Of a stretch of 64,000 bases of DNA, positions 37,119 to 48,923 are shown piece by piece (the stretch's first letter is position 1; each line of letters begins with the position of its first letter). This DNA comes from a virus (taxonomy: Duplodnaviria > Heunggongvirae > Uroviricota > Caudoviricetes), in IMG/VR virus record IMGVR_UViG_2565956726_000008; one strand, written 5' to 3'. A program made the position numbers and the translations under genes. The notes under the pieces were generated by a model, which did not search any database, was not told the origin of the DNA, and saw only the letters and a list, made by a program, of their open reading frames with translations.

Positions 37119-37640
37119 TGAAAATTCCTCAAGTTGGAGAGTTCTGGAACATTAAGGCGAGGTGGCAGTAATGCACCATCTGTAATCTTTTGATACTGAC
37201 GTAATCGGGCCTGATGTGCAACGCCTTGCAAGTATGTAACTCATTGAAAACGATCATTTTTATCTATTGACATCAAATGGCAAACTGTCATTGTGCGGCT
37301 ATGGCAAGTGGCAAATGCTTATAAATCATATGGATATAAATAGTACAGAAAGAGTTGTTTTCTCTAGGATATGAGTATACGCCCAATGCTGATTGGTTGA
37401 ATTTTGTTCTTGTTTTAAAGGGTAAGAGTTTAAAGTGTTGGCAGTGATGTATTGGATAGTTAGAATTGCTGTGGGTGCTTGAGGCTATCTGCCTCGGGCA
37501 TGAACACCAAAGGTAGATAGAGAAAAGCCCCAGTTAACATTACGCGTCCTGCAAGACGTTTAACATTAATCTGAGGCCATATCTATGCGACACATAGAGA
37601 TTAGCCTCTTACGGACCGAAAGGTCAAGGAGAAGCAGGCT

Positions 37641-37766
37641 ATGAAGCAGCAAAAGGCGATGTTAATCGCCCTGATCGTCATCTGTTTAACCGTCATAGTG
37701 ACGGCACTGGTAACGAGGAAAGACCTCTGCGAGGTACGAATCCGAACTGGCAGACGGAGGCTCTGA
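37641..37766 (+). CDS. Hok/Gef-family toxin homolog with divergent, truncated C-terminus (possible pseudogene)
   Basis: 41-aa ORF MKQQKAMLIALIVICLTVIVTALVTRKDLCEVRIRTGRRRL; first 37 residues match HokD/RelF-type toxins as I recall them, then the frame departs from the canonical ...TGQTEVAVFTAYE... end. Confidence 0.55.
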   Translation: MKQQKAMLIALIVICLTVIVTALVTRKDLCEVRIRTGRRRL

Positions 37767-37848
37767 TTCGTAGACTACTAATCTGAGTAAAAGACCCAGC
37801 GGGGAAAGAACCACGCCGGGACTAGTTAATAAGATATTTATAGCGTGG

Positions 37849-38190
37849 CTATTCTTTTTTTGCGGTATAGACTTTTTCGCCTGAGAAGTCTGGAGCTACC
37901 CAAAAGTTAATATTAAACTGAGCATCATCGCTTAGTTCAACACGGTGCCAGTATTGTGGTGGGCTTGTTGCAAAAGCGCCAGCATTAATGACTACTTTTA
38001 TCTCCGGTTCAGTAGCATTCTCATCAGCAAAACCATAATATGTTACAGTACCTTCCATCACGCATAACTGTCCAAAAACACCTGCTGCTGTATTATGATG
38101 TGTTAATAACGCTGAAGGTACGTTCTCTTTTGTGAAGAACGGAGTTGAGCGTTTGATTACCCAGTCTTTAGGAATTCTCTTGTGTGTCAT
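37849..38190 (-). CDS. YeaR-like cupin (DUF1971-type)
   Basis: 113 aa from MTHKRIPKDWVIKRSTPFF; alignable with my recollection of E. coli YeaR (RSTPF..., NIDFFVAP-type end). Confidence 0.5.
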   Translation of the reverse strand: MTHKRIPKDWVIKRSTPFFTKENVPSALLTHHNTAAGVFGQLCVMEGTVTYYGFADENATEPEIKVVINAGAFATSPPQYWHRVELSDDAQFNINFWVAPDFSGEKVYTAKKE

Positions 38191-42907: not shown

Positions 42908-43044
42908 AATCTTAACTACAATATGATTCATTTTGATGATTGTTTCATAAGGAACAGTGAAGTAAGATCTAAGAGGAGTTAAATTTTATACAGTATAATC
43001 ATAATATTGCAGCAAGGTGGTTATAATTGAAAGAATATTTAGAT

Positions 43045-44502
43045 ATGAATACATCTCATGTAAGAGTTGTTACTCATATGTGTGGGTTCCTGGTTTGGCT
43101 CTATAGTCTTTCAATGTTGCCACCAATGGTTGTAGCATTGTTTTATAAAGAAAAAAGCCTGTTCGTTTTCTTTATAACTTTCGTTATATTTTTTTGCATT
43201 GGTGGCGGAGCGTGGTATACAACTAAGAAATCTGGCATTCAATTACGTACCCGTGATGGGTTTATTATAATTGTAATGTTTTGGATTTTGTTTTCTGTTA
43301 TTAGTGCATTCCCTTTATGGATTGACTCAGAACTTAATTTAACGTTCATTGATGCTCTGTTTGAAGGGGTTTCTGGAATAACAACAACAGGAGCAACTGT
43401 AATTGATGATGTTAGTTCATTACCTCGGGCATATTTGTACTATCGGTCACAGTTAAATTTTATAGGTGGTTTAGGAGTTATTGTTCTGGCGGTTGCTGTA
43501 TTGCCATTATTGGGTATTGGTGGTGCAAAGCTTTATCAGTCAGAAATGCCGGGGCCATTTAAGGATGACAAACTCACTCCCCGCCTGGCCGATACGTCAC
43601 GGACACTGTGGATAACTTATTCTTTATTAGGTATTGCTTGTATTGTCTGTTATAGACTTGCAGGAATGCCTTTGTTTGATGCTATTTGTCACGGGATTTC
43701 CACAGTTTCGCTTGGTGGTTTCTCAACTCATAGCGAGAGTATCGGATATTTTAATAACTATTTGGTTGAGCTGGTGGCTGGTTCTTTTTCCCTGCTATCG
43801 GCTTTCAACTTCACTCTTTGGTATATTGTTATTAGCAGGAAAACGATAAAACCTTTAATCAGAGATATTGAACTTCGTTTCTTTCTGTTAATAGCCTTAG
43901 GGGTGATCATTGTTACCTCTTTCCAGGTCTGGCATATAGGTATGTATGACTTGCATGGAAGTTTTATTCATTCGTTTTTTCTTGCCAGCTCCATGCTCAC
44001 TGATAATGGTTTAGCTACGCAGGATTATGCAAGTTGGCCCACGCACACGATAGTGTTTTTGCTGTTGTCAAGTTTCTTTGGGGGATGTATAGGTTCAACT
44101 TGTGGTGGAATTAAGTCACTTCGATTTCTTATACTTTTCAAACAAAGCAAACACGAGATAAATCAGCTTTCTCATCCCAGAGCGTTGTTGAGTGTAAATG
44201 TAGGAGGGAAGATAGTTACAGATCGTGTAATGAGGTCTGTATGGAGTTTCTTTTTTCTTTATACTCTCTTCACGGTGTTTTTTATACTGGTGTTAAATGG
44301 TATGGGATATGATTTTCTTACATCATTTGCAACAGTGGCTGCATGTATTAATAATATGGGATTAGGTTTTGGGGCTACTGCATCGTCATTCGGAGTGCTT
44401 AATGACATTGCAAAATGTTTAATGTGCATAGCTATGATTCTTGGTCGCCTTGAAATTTATCCTGTTATTATATTGTTTTCAGGTTTTTTTTGGCGCTCCT
44501 AA
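43045..44502 (+). CDS. trkG: Trk system potassium uptake protein TrkG
   Basis: 485 aa from MNTSHVRVVTHMCGFLVW; matches recollection of K-12 Rac trkG; AT-rich, multi-TM. Confidence 0.9.
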   Translation: MNTSHVRVVTHMCGFLVWLYSLSMLPPMVVALFYKEKSLFVFFITFVIFFCIGGGAWYTTKKSGIQLRTRDGFIIIVMFWILFSVISAFPLWIDSELNLTFIDALFEGVSGITTTGATVIDDVSSLPRAYLYYRSQLNFIGGLGVIVLAVAVLPLLGIGGAKLYQSEMPGPFKDDKLTPRLADTSRTLWITYSLLGIACIVCYRLAGMPLFDAICHGISTVSLGGFSTHSESIGYFNNYLVELVAGSFSLLSAFNFTLWYIVISRKTIKPLIRDIELRFFLLIALGVIIVTSFQVWHIGMYDLHGSFIHSFFLASSMLTDNGLATQDYASWPTHTIVFLLLSSFFGGCIGSTCGGIKSLRFLILFKQSKHEINQLSHPRALLSVNVGGKIVTDRVMRSVWSFFFLYTLFTVFFILVLNGMGYDFLTSFATVAACINNMGLGFGATASSFGVLNDIAKCLMCIAMILGRLEIYPVIILFSGFFWRS

Positions 44503-44639
44503 TATATGGCTGATTTATAATTGTGAGTTTAATATTATGTTGACTCACTCATTGATCCAATACCTAACTTTACCAGCAACACCTCCGTCCCCAGTAGCAC
44601 TGGCTGCTGGGGTGCGTTTTATTCATAAAGCAAGGCTGT

Positions 44640-45431
44640 ATGAGCGAGAAATTAAAGATAGTCTATCGCCCATTACAAGAATTGTCACCGTATGCGCACA
44701 ACGCCAGGACGCACAGTACTGAGCAGGTGGCACAACTGGTAGAAAGTATTAAGCAATTCGGCTGGACTAATCCGGTGCTGATTGACGAAAAGGGCGAAAT
44801 TATTGCGGGTCACGGTCGTGTTATGGCGGCTGAAATGCTCAAAATGGATTCTGTTCCGGTCATTGTTCTGTCTGGCCTGACGGATGAGCAGAAAAAGGCG
44901 TACCGCCTGGCAGATAATCGCCTGCCGATGAATGCTGGCTGGGATGAAGATCTGTTGCGGATGGAGCTGTCGGACCTAATCAATGCTGATTTTGATGTCT
45001 CCCTGACAGGCTTCATCCCGACAGAAATTGATGAACTGTTGACGGATGTTTTGCCCGGTACAGGAAATGAGGAGGAGCCGTATACGACGAAAATTGATAC
45101 GCCTGTTTATGAGCCGTCGGGCGGTAAACCGGATATCAGTGAACTGTACGACGATACGAAAACTCAGGAGCTGATCAGCCGGATACGTTCGGCGTCCCTT
45201 GAGCCTGATATTGAGAAATTCCTCCTGTGTGCGGCAGAACGTCACACGGTGTTTAATTTCAGCAGAATTGCGGACTATTACGCTCACGCCCCCTCTGAAA
45301 TTCAGTGTTTTTTCGAGGAGTCGGCGCTGGTGATCATTGATTATCAGCAGGCTATTGAAAATGGATTTGTCCGGATGACGCAGCGCATGGTGGAGATCAT
45401 GCATGGTGGTGAGGAGGAGGAATATGCGTGA
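44640..45431 (+). CDS. ParB-like nuclease domain protein (YnaK-like, full length)
   Basis: 263 aa; N-terminal ParB/Srx-like region (LKIVYRPLQELSPYAHNARTHS...ILIDEKGEIIAGHGRVMAA). Confidence 0.6.
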   Translation: MSEKLKIVYRPLQELSPYAHNARTHSTEQVAQLVESIKQFGWTNPVLIDEKGEIIAGHGRVMAAEMLKMDSVPVIVLSGLTDEQKKAYRLADNRLPMNAGWDEDLLRMELSDLINADFDVSLTGFIPTEIDELLTDVLPGTGNEEEPYTTKIDTPVYEPSGGKPDISELYDDTKTQELISRIRSASLEPDIEKFLLCAAERHTVFNFSRIADYYAHAPSEIQCFFEESALVIIDYQQAIENGFVRMTQRMVEIMHGGEEEEYA

Positions 45432-46356
45432 TGATTTTTGCGCCTTTATTCTGACTCACGGGCGACCGGACAAAGTTCTGACTTACCGGACGTTGCGTCG
45501 TGCTGGCTATACCGGGAAAATTTTTATCGTTGTTGATGATGAAGATAAGACACGGCATCAGTACATGGCTGAATTTGGTGAACAGGTGCTGGTGTTTTCC
45601 AAAGCCGATATCGCCAGTCGTTTTGACGAAGCCGATAATTTCTGTGACCGCCGCTCAATTTTTTACGCCCGTAATGCCTGTTTCGACCTGGCAAAACTGG
45701 TCGGGTGTAAATACTTCATTCAGCTCGATGATGATTATCACGAGTTCCAGTTTCGGGTGGATCGCAACTATGACCAGGCCTATTTTCCGATAAGGAAACT
45801 GGATGCGATCCTTTCTGAAATGCTGGCGTACTACGAATCAATACCTGCTCTTTCCATCGCTATGTCGCAGGGCGGGGATTTTCTTGGTGACAATGGCGGC
45901 CATGCTTCGTGGGTGAAACGCAAGGCAATGAACAGCTTTATCTGTTCGGTTGATCGACCGTTCTCATTCATGGGGCGCATTAACGAGGATGTGAATACGT
46001 ACACGAATCTCGGTCGCTGTGGTGAATTGTTTATGACGATCGGTGCTGTCCAGTTAGGGCAGAAACAGACGCAGAAAAACAGCGGCGGAATGACCGAGCT
46101 GTATCTGGATTCCGGAACCTACGTTAAAAGTTTTTACTCCGTCATGTATGCGCCGTCGTGCGTAAAAATCTCACTGATGGGTGCCAGCCATAAACGCATT
46201 CACCATCAGGTCACCTGGAACAACGCTGCAGTAAAAATCCTTCACGAAAAATACAGGAAGAAGACACCCTGCATATCAATGGGGGTGACAAATGATTCCG
46301 TATTCGAAAGTCGAGTCTCTGGCAGCGTGCCGGATGACTGCACAACAAATCGCTGA
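45424..46356 (+). CDS. GT-A-like (glycosyltransferase-fold) protein, putative; YdaY-position
   Basis: 310 aa from MRDDFCAFILTHGRPDKV; N-terminal region and DxD-like QLDDDY motif resemble GT-A glycosyltransferases; tentative. Confidence 0.4.
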   Translation: MRDDFCAFILTHGRPDKVLTYRTLRRAGYTGKIFIVVDDEDKTRHQYMAEFGEQVLVFSKADIASRFDEADNFCDRRSIFYARNACFDLAKLVGCKYFIQLDDDYHEFQFRVDRNYDQAYFPIRKLDAILSEMLAYYESIPALSIAMSQGGDFLGDNGGHASWVKRKAMNSFICSVDRPFSFMGRINEDVNTYTNLGRCGELFMTIGAVQLGQKQTQKNSGGMTELYLDSGTYVKSFYSVMYAPSCVKISLMGASHKRIHHQVTWNNAAVKILHEKYRKKTPCISMGVTNDSVFESRVSGSVPDDCTTNR

Positions 46357-46543
46357 CGTTCTGGATGTTGATCTGAACCGACTGAAAGAAAATCGGGAAG
46401 CAATGACAGATTTTTATGCGGCCATCCGTAAGGGCAGAGCGAAAGGTGAAGCCGAGTTACGAGCGGCATTGTTTAAGCTTGCCAGAAAAGGGGATGCCTT
46501 TGCTCTGCGCGAACTACTCAGGGTGGATAAAAATCAGGACTAA
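46334..46543 (+). CDS. small HTH-like protein upstream of terminase, putative
   Basis: 69 aa from MTAQQIADVLDVDLNRLKENREAM (listed ORF starts 46292); overlaps the end of the preceding gene. Confidence 0.35.
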   Translation: MTAQQIADVLDVDLNRLKENREAMTDFYAAIRKGRAKGEAELRAALFKLARKGDAFALRELLRVDKNQD

Positions 46544-46546
46544 CTG

Positions 46547-47641
46547 ATGAGCAGACCGGACTGGGGGGCGTTGCAGCAGGAGTATATTGCTGAATACACC
46601 CGCTCCGGTATATCTCCGGTGGCATGGTGTGAAGCAAGGGGACTGAATTACGCAACAGCCCGTCGTTACATCAAAAAAACTCCGAAAAATGCGCAGACAG
46701 AAATGTGCAAAACTGCGCAAAAAAGTGCGCAGAAAAAATCTGCGCAGACTGCACAAAAGCGGAACGAAAAATCTCAGGAAAAAAAGCCAGTATTCGATGC
46801 GGGCCTGAATGAGGGCGACGCGGAGGAATTTTCGTTCTGTCCCGATGAATTCGGCATTTCTGACCAGCAGGCTAAGTTTGCGATGCTTGTTGCTCAGGGT
46901 AAAAAGCCGACAGAGGCGTACCGACTAGCCGGTTATGAGGGGCAAGGTGCGACAGCTAATAGCAACGCCAGTCGTATGCTTAGAAATGCCAGGGTTTTTC
47001 GCGCTATCAGCTACTTCCGCAATCAGTACCAGAAACGCTATACCGCAGACCTGGATTTACTAGTGAGTCAGTTGATGGCCATTGTCCTGGCCGACCCCAA
47101 TCAGCTTGCACAATTTCGCCGTGTTAACTGCCGTTATTGCTGGGGCGAGAATCATCTCTACCAGTGGCGCGATATAGCAGAATTCGACAAGGCAGCGGCG
47201 CAGGCTTCCAGAGATGGCAAACCCGAACCGGAATATGGAGGCCTCGGCTTTGTTGATAACGCCATACCCAATCCGGACTGCCCGAAGTGCTGCGGTGAGG
47301 GAACGGGACAGCTTTATATGGCTGATACCACTCTGCTTGATGGGGATGCGCGGCAATTATATGCAGGGGCAAAATTCGGAAAATTCGGCGTTGAGATCCT
47401 GCTGGAGGATAAGGCTGCCGCCCGGCGTGAATTGTTGCGTTTGCTTTCTGCTGGCGGGGCTTTATGTGCAGATAAGCGGCTACAGGAACTGGAAATTGAA
47501 CGGCGCAGAATGGAAAACCAGAAGCTGCGCAAAGAGATCGAAACGGTGGAAGATAATGAACATCCCCAGCCTGTGGCGATCAATATTAATGTGGTTGATG
47601 CCAGAGTAAGGAGTGATGAAGATGATCTCTCCGACGCTTAA
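46547..47641 (+). CDS. terminase small subunit with Cys-rich insertion
   Basis: 364 aa; AKFAMLVAQGKKPTEAYRLAGYEGQGATANSNASRMLRN is a typical small-terminase HTH segment; additional CxxC...CxxCC cluster; contains a DNA repeat array at 46685-46765. Confidence 0.6.
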   Translation: MSRPDWGALQQEYIAEYTRSGISPVAWCEARGLNYATARRYIKKTPKNAQTEMCKTAQKSAQKKSAQTAQKRNEKSQEKKPVFDAGLNEGDAEEFSFCPDEFGISDQQAKFAMLVAQGKKPTEAYRLAGYEGQGATANSNASRMLRNARVFRAISYFRNQYQKRYTADLDLLVSQLMAIVLADPNQLAQFRRVNCRYCWGENHLYQWRDIAEFDKAAAQASRDGKPEPEYGGLGFVDNAIPNPDCPKCCGEGTGQLYMADTTLLDGDARQLYAGAKFGKFGVEILLEDKAAARRELLRLLSAGGALCADKRLQELEIERRRMENQKLRKEIETVEDNEHPQPVAININVVDARVRSDEDDLSDA

Positions 47642-48923
47642 TGTGCCTCAGGCGCGATTTCTTTCAATGCCCCATAAATTTAAAGCCTATATTGCTGGTT
47701 TTGGCTCGGGCAAAACATGGGTTGGGTGTGGCGGCATATGCAAGGGGATTTGGGAGCATCCAGGTATAAATCAGGGATATTTTGCGCCAACGTATCCCCA
47801 AATTCGCGATATTTTTTACCCTACAGTGGAAGAAGTTGCTGCTGACTGGGGATTGAACGTAAAAATTAATGAGGGAAATAAAGAGGTTCACTTTTATTAC
47901 GGACGCCAGTATCGGGGAACCACTATCTGCAGATCGATGGAGAAGCCACAAACGATCGTCGGTTTCAAAATTGGTAATGCGTTGGTGGATGAACTGGACA
48001 TTTTGCCGAAGGAAAAAGCCAGAACGGCGTGGCGCAAGATAATTGCACGTATGCGTTATAAGATTGATGGACTTCGCAACGGTATTGACGTTACAACCAC
48101 GCCGGAAGGATTCAAATTTGTCTACGAGCAGTTTGTTAAAGCCGTGCGTGAAAAAACAGAGCTGGCCTCACTGTATGGTCTGGTGCAGGCATCTACTTTC
48201 GATAATGAAAAGAACCTGCCAGCAGATTACATTCCTTCGCTTCTTGAATCATACCCTCCAGAGCTGATTAAAGCCTATCTTCGAGGACAGTTTACTAACC
48301 TGACAAGTGGTACTGTTTACCATCAGTTTGACCGGAAACTGAATAATTGCGAAGAAGTGGAGCAGCCAGGGGAGCCGATTTATATTGGGATGGATTTTAA
48401 CGTTGGAAAGATGGCGGGAATCGTCCATGTGCTGCGTTTGGGGCTTCCATGTGCGGTAACTGAAATCATCAATGCCTACGATACGCCGGATATGATCCGC
48501 ATCATTAAAGAACGCTTCTGGCTGTATGATGGGAATGATTACCGGAAAGTGAGGGAAATTTATATTTATCCAGATGCTTCCGGGGATTCCAGAAAATCAA
48601 GTAACGCAAGTACGACGGATATAGCCCAGCTTAAGCAGGCTGGTTTTAACGTTGTGGTGAACAGCTCGAACCCGCCAGTAAAAGATCGCGTTAACTCAAT
48701 GAATGCAATGTTCTGCAATGCCAATGGTGAGCGTCGCTATAAAGTTAATGTGAAGCGTTGCCCGTTATATGCCGAATCTCTGGAGCAACAGGTCTGGGAT
48801 GAGAAGGGGGAGCCTGATAAAAAATCTGGCAATGATCACCCGAATGATGCCGGAGGTTATTTCATCGTTAAGCAATTCCCTATTGTCAAACCGACCGGAA
48901 GAGTCACATCACTTCGGATTTAA
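47613..48923 (+). CDS. terminase large subunit
   Basis: 436 aa; Walker A (GFGSGKT) and C-terminal nuclease-type acidic motifs; follows small subunit. Confidence 0.8.
   Translation: MMKMISPTLNVPQARFLSMPHKFKAYIAGFGSGKTWVGCGGICKGIWEHPGINQGYFAPTYPQIRDIFYPTVEEVAADWGLNVKINEGNKEVHFYYGRQYRGTTICRSMEKPQTIVGFKIGNALVDELDILPKEKARTAWRKIIARMRYKIDGLRNGIDVTTTPEGFKFVYEQFVKAVREKTELASLYGLVQASTFDNEKNLPADYIPSLLESYPPELIKAYLRGQFTNLTSGTVYHQFDRKLNNCEEVEQPGEPIYIGMDFNVGKMAGIVHVLRLGLPCAVTEIINAYDTPDMIRIIKERFWLYDGNDYRKVREIYIYPDASGDSRKSSNASTTDIAQLKQAGFNVVVNSSNPPVKDRVNSMNAMFCNANGERRYKVNVKRCPLYAESLEQQVWDEKGEPDKKSGNDHPNDAGGYFIVKQFPIVKPTGRVTSLRI

Follow-up and report, generated by a model that had tools for sequence, protein, structure and literature searches.

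A ParB-like protein and a TAGT-family glycosyltransferase form a conserved gene pair in phages: a candidate adaptor-dependent module for glycosylating phage DNA

Introduction

To our knowledge, almost all known cases of phage DNA glycosylation come from lytic phages in which hydroxymethyl bases are made first. Here, we analysed a gene pair found in a 64,000-nt stretch of DNA (IMG/VR record IMGVR_UViG_2565956726_000008; hereafter, the window), which is a segment of an Escherichia coli chromosome with a complete Rac-type lambdoid prophage, annotated from intR through the tail genes. The pair, which we call the cassette, consists of a gene for a 263-aa protein with a ParB/Srx-type N-terminal domain (N-domain; the protein is hereafter the partner), followed by a gene for a 310-aa glycosyltransferase (GT) of the TET-associated glycosyltransferase (TAGT) family, and it stands directly upstream of the packaging genes. 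We propose, at what we would call even chances, that it is an adaptor-dependent glycosylation module for phage DNA that is expressed late.

Several described systems come close to this arrangement. Characterised TAGT-family members and GT-A relatives attach sugars to DNA bases (PMC13216743; bioRxiv 10.1101/2023.12.21.572611), and multi-step glycan pathways on phage DNA have been described, in a study where phage GT-A DNA glycosyltransferases matched the kinetoplastid base-J glucosyltransferase (JGT) best in structure (10.1101/2023.12.21.572611). A TAGT homologue lacking an accompanying alpha- or beta-GT was found in 288 of 753 phage genomes and its function was left undefined (PMC13216743), and about 65% of GT-bearing contigs have neither a dioxygenase nor a thymidylate-synthase neighbour; ParB-like proteins and terminases were listed among the GT-neighbour annotations and left unanalysed (10.1101/2023.12.21.572611). 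As for the other member of the pair, one phage thymine dioxygenase acts on double-stranded DNA only with the help of its cognate ParB-like protein, which has an NBD–linker–C-terminal domain (CTD) layout and lacks a DNA-binding domain, and in this 5mYOX176/ParB176 system, the residues of the nucleoside triphosphate (NTP) motif appear dispensable; the same paper cites Iyer et al. 2013 for the idea of ParB directing modification enzymes (PMC13229309, PNAS 2026). ParB is mentioned only for GmrSD in PMC12373910, and a survey of the ParB fold leaves glycosyltransferases unmentioned. No paper in the literature that we searched treats the ParB–TAGT pair as a unit. The TAGT name reportedly goes back to Iyer et al. 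2013, and part of the ParB–TAGT pairing may already be depicted there.

Results

The partner and glycosyltransferase genes are translationally coupled

The cassette contains the following features (positions are those of the window):

44640..45431 (+): gene of the partner (putative adaptor), named 'ynaK' by PGAP; ParB/Srx N-terminal domain protein of 263 aa
44640..45044 (+): ParB/Srx-fold N-domain of the partner, with a Box-II-like AGHGR at aa 56-60
45072..45389 (+): linker motif YTxKIxxPxYEP and CTD of the partner, delimited by alignments
45411..45431 (+): translational-coupling junction, read directly from the sequence
45424..46356 (+): gene of the TAGT-family GT-A glycosyltransferase, named 'GREB1-related protein' by PGAP; 310 aa

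Both open reading frames (ORFs) lie on the plus strand between trkG and the terminase genes, where a preliminary description of this DNA had placed them. At the junction, GAGGAGGAGGAATATGCGTGA, a Shine-Dalgarno sequence (GAGGAGGAG) built from the terminal Glu codons of the partner gene is followed by ATGCGTGA, in which the GT start (45424-45426) and the partner stop codon TGA (45429-45431) overlap. The start at ATG 45424 is the choice of PGAP and agrees with the alignment of homologues; an alternative in-frame ATG at 45403 would yield a protein of 317 aa. The partner and the GT are thus translationally coupled, and stop/start overlap is the rule at homologous loci. The preliminary description had treated the ParB-like protein and the transferase as a pair, and this coupling, together with their linkage in nearly all of the 93 relatives described below, establishes that the pair is real.

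The glycosyltransferase belongs to the TAGT family and looks catalytically intact

The 310-aa protein matches the Pfam TAGT family (PF20691) with 122.1 bits (cut-off 27.5, E 3.8e-35), over its residues 15-229 and profile positions 4-205 of 205; the same domain is carried by all 120 listed GT homologues, and the match to phrog_842 reaches 7e-104. Its predicted structure (predicted template modelling score, pTM, 0.76) has a GT-A fold with a Rossmann-like N-terminal half. Among the predicted viral structures of BFVD, its best matches are TAGT-domain phage proteins (template modelling score, TM, 0.76-0.86); a T-even-type beta-glucosyl-HMC-alpha-glucosyltransferase is matched at E 4e-7, TM 0.60-0.65 and 14% identity, and the matches among solved structures are all GT-A enzymes, though distant (TM ~0.4). 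From the N-terminus and a DxD-like motif, QLDDDY, the protein had been suggested to be a GT-A-fold nucleotide-sugar transferase. Profile, model and structure searches agree with that suggestion, narrow it to the TAGT family and speak against an unrelated fold, and QLDDDY proves to be the invariant D102-D103-D104 of the family.

Residues R14, D68, R83, D102-D104, K167, D189 and H260-H261 do not vary across homologues that range from enterobacteria to a haloarchaeal virus. They include the TAGT active-site motifs R...DDD...(E)D (R14, D102-D104 and D189), and, because these motifs and the HH pair are invariant, the GT looks catalytically intact; we regard it as highly likely to be an active sugar transferase. 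Neither the GT nor the CTD of the partner has a match in the PADLOC defence-system library. The E. coli GT ends in a tail of ~22 aa (window 46290-46356), which homologues from other genera (~288 aa) lack, which overlaps the following small ORF and which is modelled with very low confidence.

The constrained part of the partner is its unannotated C-terminal domain

The structural model of the partner comprises an N-domain (aa 1-135), a disordered linker (137-153) and a helical CTD (~155-245), with no helix-turn-helix (HTH) domain. The ParB/Srx-type domain ascribed to the N-terminus in the preliminary description is borne out by the ParB_N family model (Pfam PF02195), and the N-domain has the ParB/Srx fold. 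Its close relatives are modules of phage DNA methyltransferases: the N-domain matches phrog_498, a phage DNA methyltransferase module, at 9e-51 and PADLOC MTase_II (PDLC03229) at 1.5e-38, and a tblastn search with the N-terminal ~140 residues returned 495 phage records, many of those listed being annotated as adenine or DNA methyltransferases, with up to 55% identity. A canonical partition ParB (TIGR00180) was considered and rejected (38.1 bits against a cut-off of 58.45, matching residues 11-94 only), as was a role in ParABS partition, given that the partner model has no HTH and that no parA lies nearby; parS was not searched for. The word 'nuclease' in the name of the partner comes from database labels only and finds no support in this analysis.

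An alignment of 22 diverse partners places all invariant residues (Y157, R201, A211, Y214, E226 and D234) in the C-terminal part, where the motifs YTxKIxxPxYEP, FLxxAAxRHxxFNY, IAEYYAHA and E-SALVIID are found, and in the same alignment, the arginine of the N-domain GxxR is lost in several partners. Across 67 loci, mean pairwise identity is 49% for the GT, 46% for the CTD and 31% for the N-domain, and the divergence of the CTD tracks that of the GT better than the divergence of the N-domain does (Spearman 0.36 versus 0.19). Searches of Pfam and PDB with the CTD gave no match. Against 1.84 billion representative proteins, the CTD alone matched 1180 clusters at E <= 0.001; in the best 150 listed, it is mostly the C-terminus of a 230-350-aa protein, and in a minority, the protein measures just ~128-200 aa. 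In 13 clusters of the GT loci, the CTD stands alone beside the GT. As judged from these comparisons of sequences, the constrained, GT-specific part of the partner is the unannotated CTD and not the ParB domain. Since the CTD is conserved like the GT and occurs without the N-domain, the core unit appears to be the CTD plus the GT, with the ParB domain as a frequent N-terminal addition.

These properties of the partner bear on one alternative, namely that its ParB/Srx domain binds an NTP or is a kinase (as in SerK, SbnI and sulfiredoxin) and that the GT modifies a nucleotide, a signal or a metabolite, for example to disable a host immune signal. ParB-fold proteins do bind ATP, GTP or CTP in various contexts (10.1101/2025.10.10.680097), and AvpGT with Ara-A, a nucleoside-binding GT, is among the best solved-structure matches, at a TM of only 0.41. 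These solved-structure matches are, however, generic GT-A enzymes, the N-domain is dispensable in a sizeable subset of cassettes, its GxxR arginine is not conserved, and its closest relatives are DNA methyltransferase modules rather than kinases. As this explanation also fails to account for the position of the cassette in packaging or replication modules, we consider it improbable.

The pair is conserved across distant phages

Searching phage genomes by tblastn recovered relatives with the GT at 27-47% identity in Nocardia phage NTR1, in Lactobacillus phages phi jlb1, c5 and their relatives, in Haloarcula virus HHTV-2, in 191-kb Vibrio phages and in Porphyromonas phages. A partner-like ORF immediately precedes the GT, with overlapping stop and start codons, in jlb1, NTR1, c5, a Porphyromonas phage and HHTV-2, and terminase and portal genes follow 3' of the cassette; the homologue of the partner in NTR1 is the unannotated orf1. 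Phage c5 has the cassette as its first operon behind cos. In a Vibrio phage, the GT is preceded by an ORF consisting of the CTD only.

For a quantitative view, we collected 160 loci from IMG/VR and one-genome-per-species GTDB contigs, all with a GT at least 43% identical to that of the window, and the statistics below apply to that clade. The loci come from Bacteroidota, Firmicutes, Proteobacteria, Verrucomicrobiota, Acidobacteriota, Planctomycetota, Saccharibacteria and one archaeon. After scoring with profiles of both proteins, the 168 loci with a GT fell into 93 clusters at 80% identity, distributed as follows:

67/93 clusters: full-length partner, adjacent or overlapping upstream on the same strand
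13/93 clusters: adjacent ORF of ~132 aa with the CTD only
6/93 clusters: an extra gene inserted between partner and GT
5/93 clusters: partner cut by the contig end
2/93 clusters: no partner (a distant T4-like Aeromonas TAGT, and a GT starting at the contig end)

No third conserved gene emerged when all genes within 7 kb of the 93 loci were clustered: the GT family was present at 87 loci and the partner at 74, and the next largest families, which occur at 13 loci at most, are terminases, portals and small HTH proteins of several unrelated types. A C5-methyltransferase lies near 6 of the 93 loci, at variable distance. The two genes are therefore, very probably, one functional unit.

Some relatives depart from the basic layout. 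CTD-only partners (~132-139 aa) occur in Vibrio phage pv27 (L005 5459-6888) and at L119, L112, L077, L099 and L136, and these cassettes adjoin PolA, primase-helicase, DUF1376, AAA_25 and helicase genes rather than a terminase, which suggests a second deployment of the CTD–GT unit. Others are elaborated: a ParB–TAGT–TAGT arrangement has a radical-SAM gene at +1 (L166 6153-8812; also L145 and L167), a TAGT–class I SAM methyltransferase fusion stands between ParB and a TAGT (L147 3581-5272), a methyltransferase-like gene separates the CTD from the GT (L150 5883-6716), two CTD–GT pairs lie in tandem (L153 5460-7906), and a second TAGT lies 5' of a CTD–GT pair (L116 2970-5117). These elaborated cassettes suggest multi-step glycan building. 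A natural fusion of part of the CTD in frame with the GT (P0081, 381 aa) was set aside as evidence, because it is known from a single bulk-assembly contig and may be a frameshift.

In the Lactobacillus delbrueckii phages phiLdb, Ld17 and LL-Ku, the GT gene is split in two and the ParB-like gene is kept (KF188410, KJ564037, AY739900 and KJ564036, including Ld25A), and in Ld25A, only a fragment of the GT is left, within the annotated ParB-like gene. As the GT is split or reduced in several of these phages, it would be dispensable for growth under laboratory or dairy conditions.

Comparison with described DNA-modifying systems

With the T2/T6 beta-glucosyl-HMC-alpha-glucosyltransferases of the TAGT family, this GT shares the fold, the R...DDD...(E)D motifs and the phage setting, and some of its relatives have tandem GTs and sugar-tailoring enzymes nearby, as in multi-step DNA-glycan pathways. 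It differs from TAGT enzymes, including the GTs of 5mC/T-dioxygenase clusters, in that no hydroxymethylcytosine or hydroxymethyluracil pathway is found in the same genome. The T-even-type enzyme is only 14% identical to it (TM ~0.6) and those of Aeromonas T4-like phages 22-24%; the T4-like relative L009 lacks a partner, whereas in the clade studied here an upstream partner is obligate. Records NC_019449, NC_024206, NC_021340, PP754928 and others nevertheless label members of this clade beta-glucosyl-HMC-alpha-glucosyltransferase. We rejected this label, which comes from phrog_842 and RefSeq, because the activity needs a dCMP hydroxymethylase and an alpha- or beta-GT, none of which is present in the prophage, c5 or phi jlb1; since the labelled phages have no pathway for glucosyl-hydroxymethylcytosine, the label appears to be a propagated misannotation.

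The likeness to 5mYOX176/ParB176 is one of layout. In both systems, an enzyme of a DNA-modifying family adjoins a ParB-like protein made of an N-domain, a flexible linker and a CTD, with no DNA-binding domain (in our case, according to the model), and the NTP-motif residues dispensable in ParB176 are poorly conserved in the partner. There, however, the enzyme is a dioxygenase, whereas here it is a glycosyltransferase, and the CTD forms a distinct, highly conserved family that also stands alone.

Homology links the partner to the fusions of a ParB N-domain with a DNA methyltransferase (phrog_498; PDLC03229), the N-terminal ~140 residues being those matched above at 1.5e-38 to 9e-51. In these fusions, the methyltransferase effector is part of the same chain, while here the chain ends in a putative adaptor domain and the GT effector is separate and translationally coupled. 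In MW202867, such a fusion is followed by a small DNA-binding protein, terminase and portal, which is the same position as that of the cassette. The expectation that ParB-type modules joined to DNA-modifying enzymes occur just 5' of terminase genes in other phages is thus correct. In Streptococcus phage Javan511 (L170 4501-5675), a 172-aa ParB-N protein annotated as 'DNA modification methylase' overlaps a following 225-aa protein that is, probably wrongly, annotated as an ABC siderophore transporter; the two may represent a further split ParB-module/effector pair 5' of terminase.

More distantly, JGT and GREB1 are assigned to the same GT-A superfamily as this enzyme by family name and by the PGAP label 'GREB1-related protein' only. 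JGT needs hydroxymethyluracil made by JBP, and GREB1 is reported to act on a protein, as an O-GlcNAc transferase (PMC7968844).

The cassette heads the packaging operon

The surroundings of the cassette in the window are as follows; the last three rows represent the packaging context outside it:

43027-44502: trkG, the gene 5' of the pair
44589..44612 (+): terminator-like hairpin (10-bp stem with 7 G-C pairs, then a T-rich tail), from a consensus scan only
46292/46334-46543 (+): small HTH ORF
46547-47641 (+): terminase small subunit (TerS)
47613-48923 (+): terminase large subunit (TerL)

The cassette is the head of the packaging operon (46292..48923, +), with the one extra small ORF separating the GT from TerS. 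TerL is preceded by two TerS-like genes (46292-47641), the first encoding an 83-aa (PGAP: 69-aa) HTH protein that matches the middle of phrog_309 'terminase small subunit', and the second a 364-aa TerS (Pfam Terminase_2) with a weak N-terminal resemblance to an IS66 TnpA-type HTH. The small HTH ORF is found at +1 after the GT in 10 loci. Upstream, trkG is a low-GC moron (GC 0.35-0.40 versus ~0.50 in its neighbours) between the lysis genes and the cassette (43027-44612). The strong hairpin behind it probably shields the cassette from transcription that starts at trkG during lysogeny; with such a terminator-like structure following trkG, the pair would be read as part of an antiterminated late operon with the terminase, and not from a moron promoter.

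This setting, together with the phylogenetic spread of the cassette, makes it very improbable that the GT modifies host teichoic acid or lipopolysaccharide against superinfection, in the manner of prophage TarP and Gtr systems. Glucosylated lipoteichoic acid serves as a receptor for L. delbrueckii phages. Phage GT-A enzymes similar to ours resemble TarP in structure searches (10.1101/2023.12.21.572611). Nevertheless, a position in a late lytic operon behind a terminator is not that of a lysogeny-expressed moron, the cassette is present in the virulent phage c5 and in an archaeal virus, no membrane segment, flippase partner or conserved third gene accompanies it, and a ParB-type partner would make no sense for a surface polymer.

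Proximity to the terminase genes holds for the clade at large: TerL lies 3' on the same strand in 50 of the 79 informative loci, with a median separation of 796 nt. One could hence imagine the ParB-like protein as a DNA-binding or nuclease helper of terminase in the recognition or cutting of cos/pac, with the GT as an unrelated passenger. Stand-alone ParB-like genes of the same N-domain clade do occur directly 5' of TerS and TerL, as in Vibrio phage X29, and both the location behind cos in c5 and the L. delbrueckii phages that keep the ParB-like gene with a split or lost GT would fit such a role. Yet, it is the GT-linked CTD of the partner, and not its ParB domain, that is conserved and always kept, translation of the two genes is coupled, nuclease motifs or activity find no support, and the cassette precedes unrelated families of terminase and also sits in replication modules. 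A packaging accessory is therefore, in our opinion, a slim prospect, marginally below that of a small-molecule target.

Many E. coli genomes match the region of the window at 43000-48000 with 100% identity, and 775 of 5426 complete ones have 80% or more of it. The counterparts in the Rac prophage of strain K-12 had been named as ynaK and ydaY and described as remnants, which is correct for ynaK (87 aa), a truncated remnant of the partner gene, but not for ydaY as the counterpart of the GT: this is a tail-region gene moved beside ynaK by a large deletion, and the GT gene is absent from K-12. Many copies of the GT gene in E. coli are cut short after ~190-280 codons (window 45424-46356; P0004-P0077; L053, L054, L057, L087 and L068), and many of the truncated proteins continue in frame into tail-protein sequence. 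They look like products of recurrent internal deletions of Rac-type prophages with one end in the GT gene, often near codon 231-240; the joining of the ynaK remnant to ydaY in K-12 Rac is a similar deletion with its end in the partner gene. Elsewhere in the window, the early-to-late region at ~37640-38190 (L001 14642-15191) contains a gene of the Hok/Gef toxin family and a 113-aa TehB-family (methyltransferase-like) fragment on the opposite strand, with an IS5 insertion nearby, all according to PGAP annotation only.

The acceptor of the glycosyltransferase

Phage DNA is, in our reading, the likeliest target of the GT, a proposition that we hold with no more than even confidence. It is favoured because characterised TAGT members and GT-A relatives glycosylate DNA bases, because the N-domain of the partner is a module of phage DNA methyltransferases found at the same position 5' of terminase, because CTD-only cassettes adjoin PolA, primase-helicase, DUF1376 and AAA_25 genes, because a phage ParB-like protein of the same layout is needed by a DNA dioxygenase (PMC13229309), and because some relatives elaborate the cassette as DNA-glycan pathways do (10.1101/2023.12.21.572611). 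The idea of a DNA modification system, put forward in the preliminary description, thus gains from the fold, the pairing and the genomic context; it is still an inference, and no conserved source of hydroxymethyl-pyrimidine was found to go with it.

This last result leads the points that weigh against DNA as the target. All characterised relatives of the GT depend on a hydroxymethyl-pyrimidine, either directly or through a sugar that it already carries. No such source (dioxygenase, hydroxymethylase or C5-methyltransferase) is annotated in the Rac-type prophage, nor is a TET/JBP-type dioxygenase, a dCMP/dUMP hydroxymethylase or a C5-methyltransferase plus oxidase annotated in the complete genomes of c5 and phi jlb1, and none of these acceptor-supplying families is conserved within 7 kb of the 93 relatives, as assessed by annotation and clustering, with no dedicated dioxygenase profile search. 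The complete genomes of c5 (31.8 kb) and phi jlb1 (38.3 kb) encode no polymerase, nucleotide-metabolism genes or DNA methyltransferase, so that their DNA must be canonical apart from host methylation. Canonical DNA offers no hydroxyl for an O-glycosyltransferase, and we know of no precedent for direct glycosylation of unmodified bases. The literature that we searched holds no experimental report of modified DNA in cassette-bearing phages. In addition, the contact between the partner and the GT is putative, and the co-divergence of the GT with the whole partner is only moderate (Pearson 0.54, Spearman 0.32), although most pairs lie near 45-50% identity, which leaves this test with little power. 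Finally, the loss of the GxxR arginine and the absence of the N-domain in some partners imply that DNA clamping is not essential to the core reaction.

Given that no acceptor source was found, either DNA is glycosylated by an undescribed route, or the acceptor is not DNA. In the former case, the acceptor must be a canonical or host-methylated base, or some other position in the DNA. A specific version, in which the cassette glycosylates DNA with only canonical or host-methylated bases and no hydroxymethyl-pyrimidine intermediate, the CTD supplying acceptor recognition or activation, is in our view a doubtful but worthwhile possibility.

In the latter case, the acceptor could be a protein, which is the main rival explanation, the small-molecule, packaging-helper and surface-conversion readings being less likely. 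The protein might be the partner itself, glycosylated, for instance, at the invariant tyrosine of its PxYEP linker motif in a glycogenin-like manner, or a packaging or virion protein of the same operon. Apart from sparing the GT a hydroxylated base in the prophage, c5 and phi jlb1, this would draw on Y157 and Y148 of the partner, which vary little or not at all and are situated in a segment of low model confidence that is probably flexible and is retained even in CTD-only partners; such tyrosines in a flexible conserved motif mean that the partner could itself be the acceptor. The reported activity of GREB1 provides a parallel, the cassette heads an operon for terminase, portal and head proteins, and tandem GTs and methyltransferases fit the building of protein glycans equally well. 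Against this stand the nearest characterised relatives of the GT, both by sequence and by structure, which act on DNA (PMC13216743), the N-domain that the partner has in common with DNA methyltransferases, and the CTD-only variants located in replication modules, away from structural genes; in the literature searched, no glycosylated protein is reported for these phages. On balance, we deem a protein acceptor unlikely.

Discussion

Returning to the proposal that the cassette is an adaptor-dependent module for glycosylating phage DNA, we envisage the following mechanism. The GT of this TAGT clade would work with a dedicated adaptor protein, the partner, whose CTD, along with the short conserved motif preceding it, would bind or complete the GT, while its ParB-type N-domain may hold the enzyme on double-stranded DNA. 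Transcription of the cassette would come with that of the late packaging operon, and translation of its two genes would be coupled; such late, coupled expression implies that phage DNA fresh from replication would receive its sugars just before packaging or in the course of it. What the phage would gain is probably a genome shielded, once injected, against the nucleases of the next host. DNA as the target, the timing of expression and the anti-restriction role are all elements that we infer.

With regard to what has been described before, four aspects appear to be new: the near-obligate pairing in this GT clade, the recognition that what is specific to the GT in the partner is the unannotated CTD and not the ParB fold, the equivalence, in position and in modules, to ParB–methyltransferase fusions, and the explicit acceptor paradox in small temperate phages. 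The cassette puts an enzyme of a DNA-glycosylating family, together with a dedicated putative adaptor, in ordinary temperate phages that replicate with the machinery of the host.

If the cassette does modify DNA, many supposedly plain phage genomes would be chemically decorated by an undescribed route, which would bear on restriction, type IV defence, phage therapy and the sequencing and cloning of such DNA. Should canonical bases be the acceptor, this would represent a new DNA-modification chemistry, and a common one, as the region with the module is present in about one-seventh of complete E. coli genomes and cassette-bearing phages come from many bacterial phyla and archaea. If DNA is not modified, a large branch of the 'DNA glycosyltransferase' family would be misnamed. 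Either outcome corrects current annotation, in a system open to direct tests in E. coli K-12, where the GT is missing, and extends the finding of ParB-like proteins as partners of nucleic-acid-modifying enzymes.

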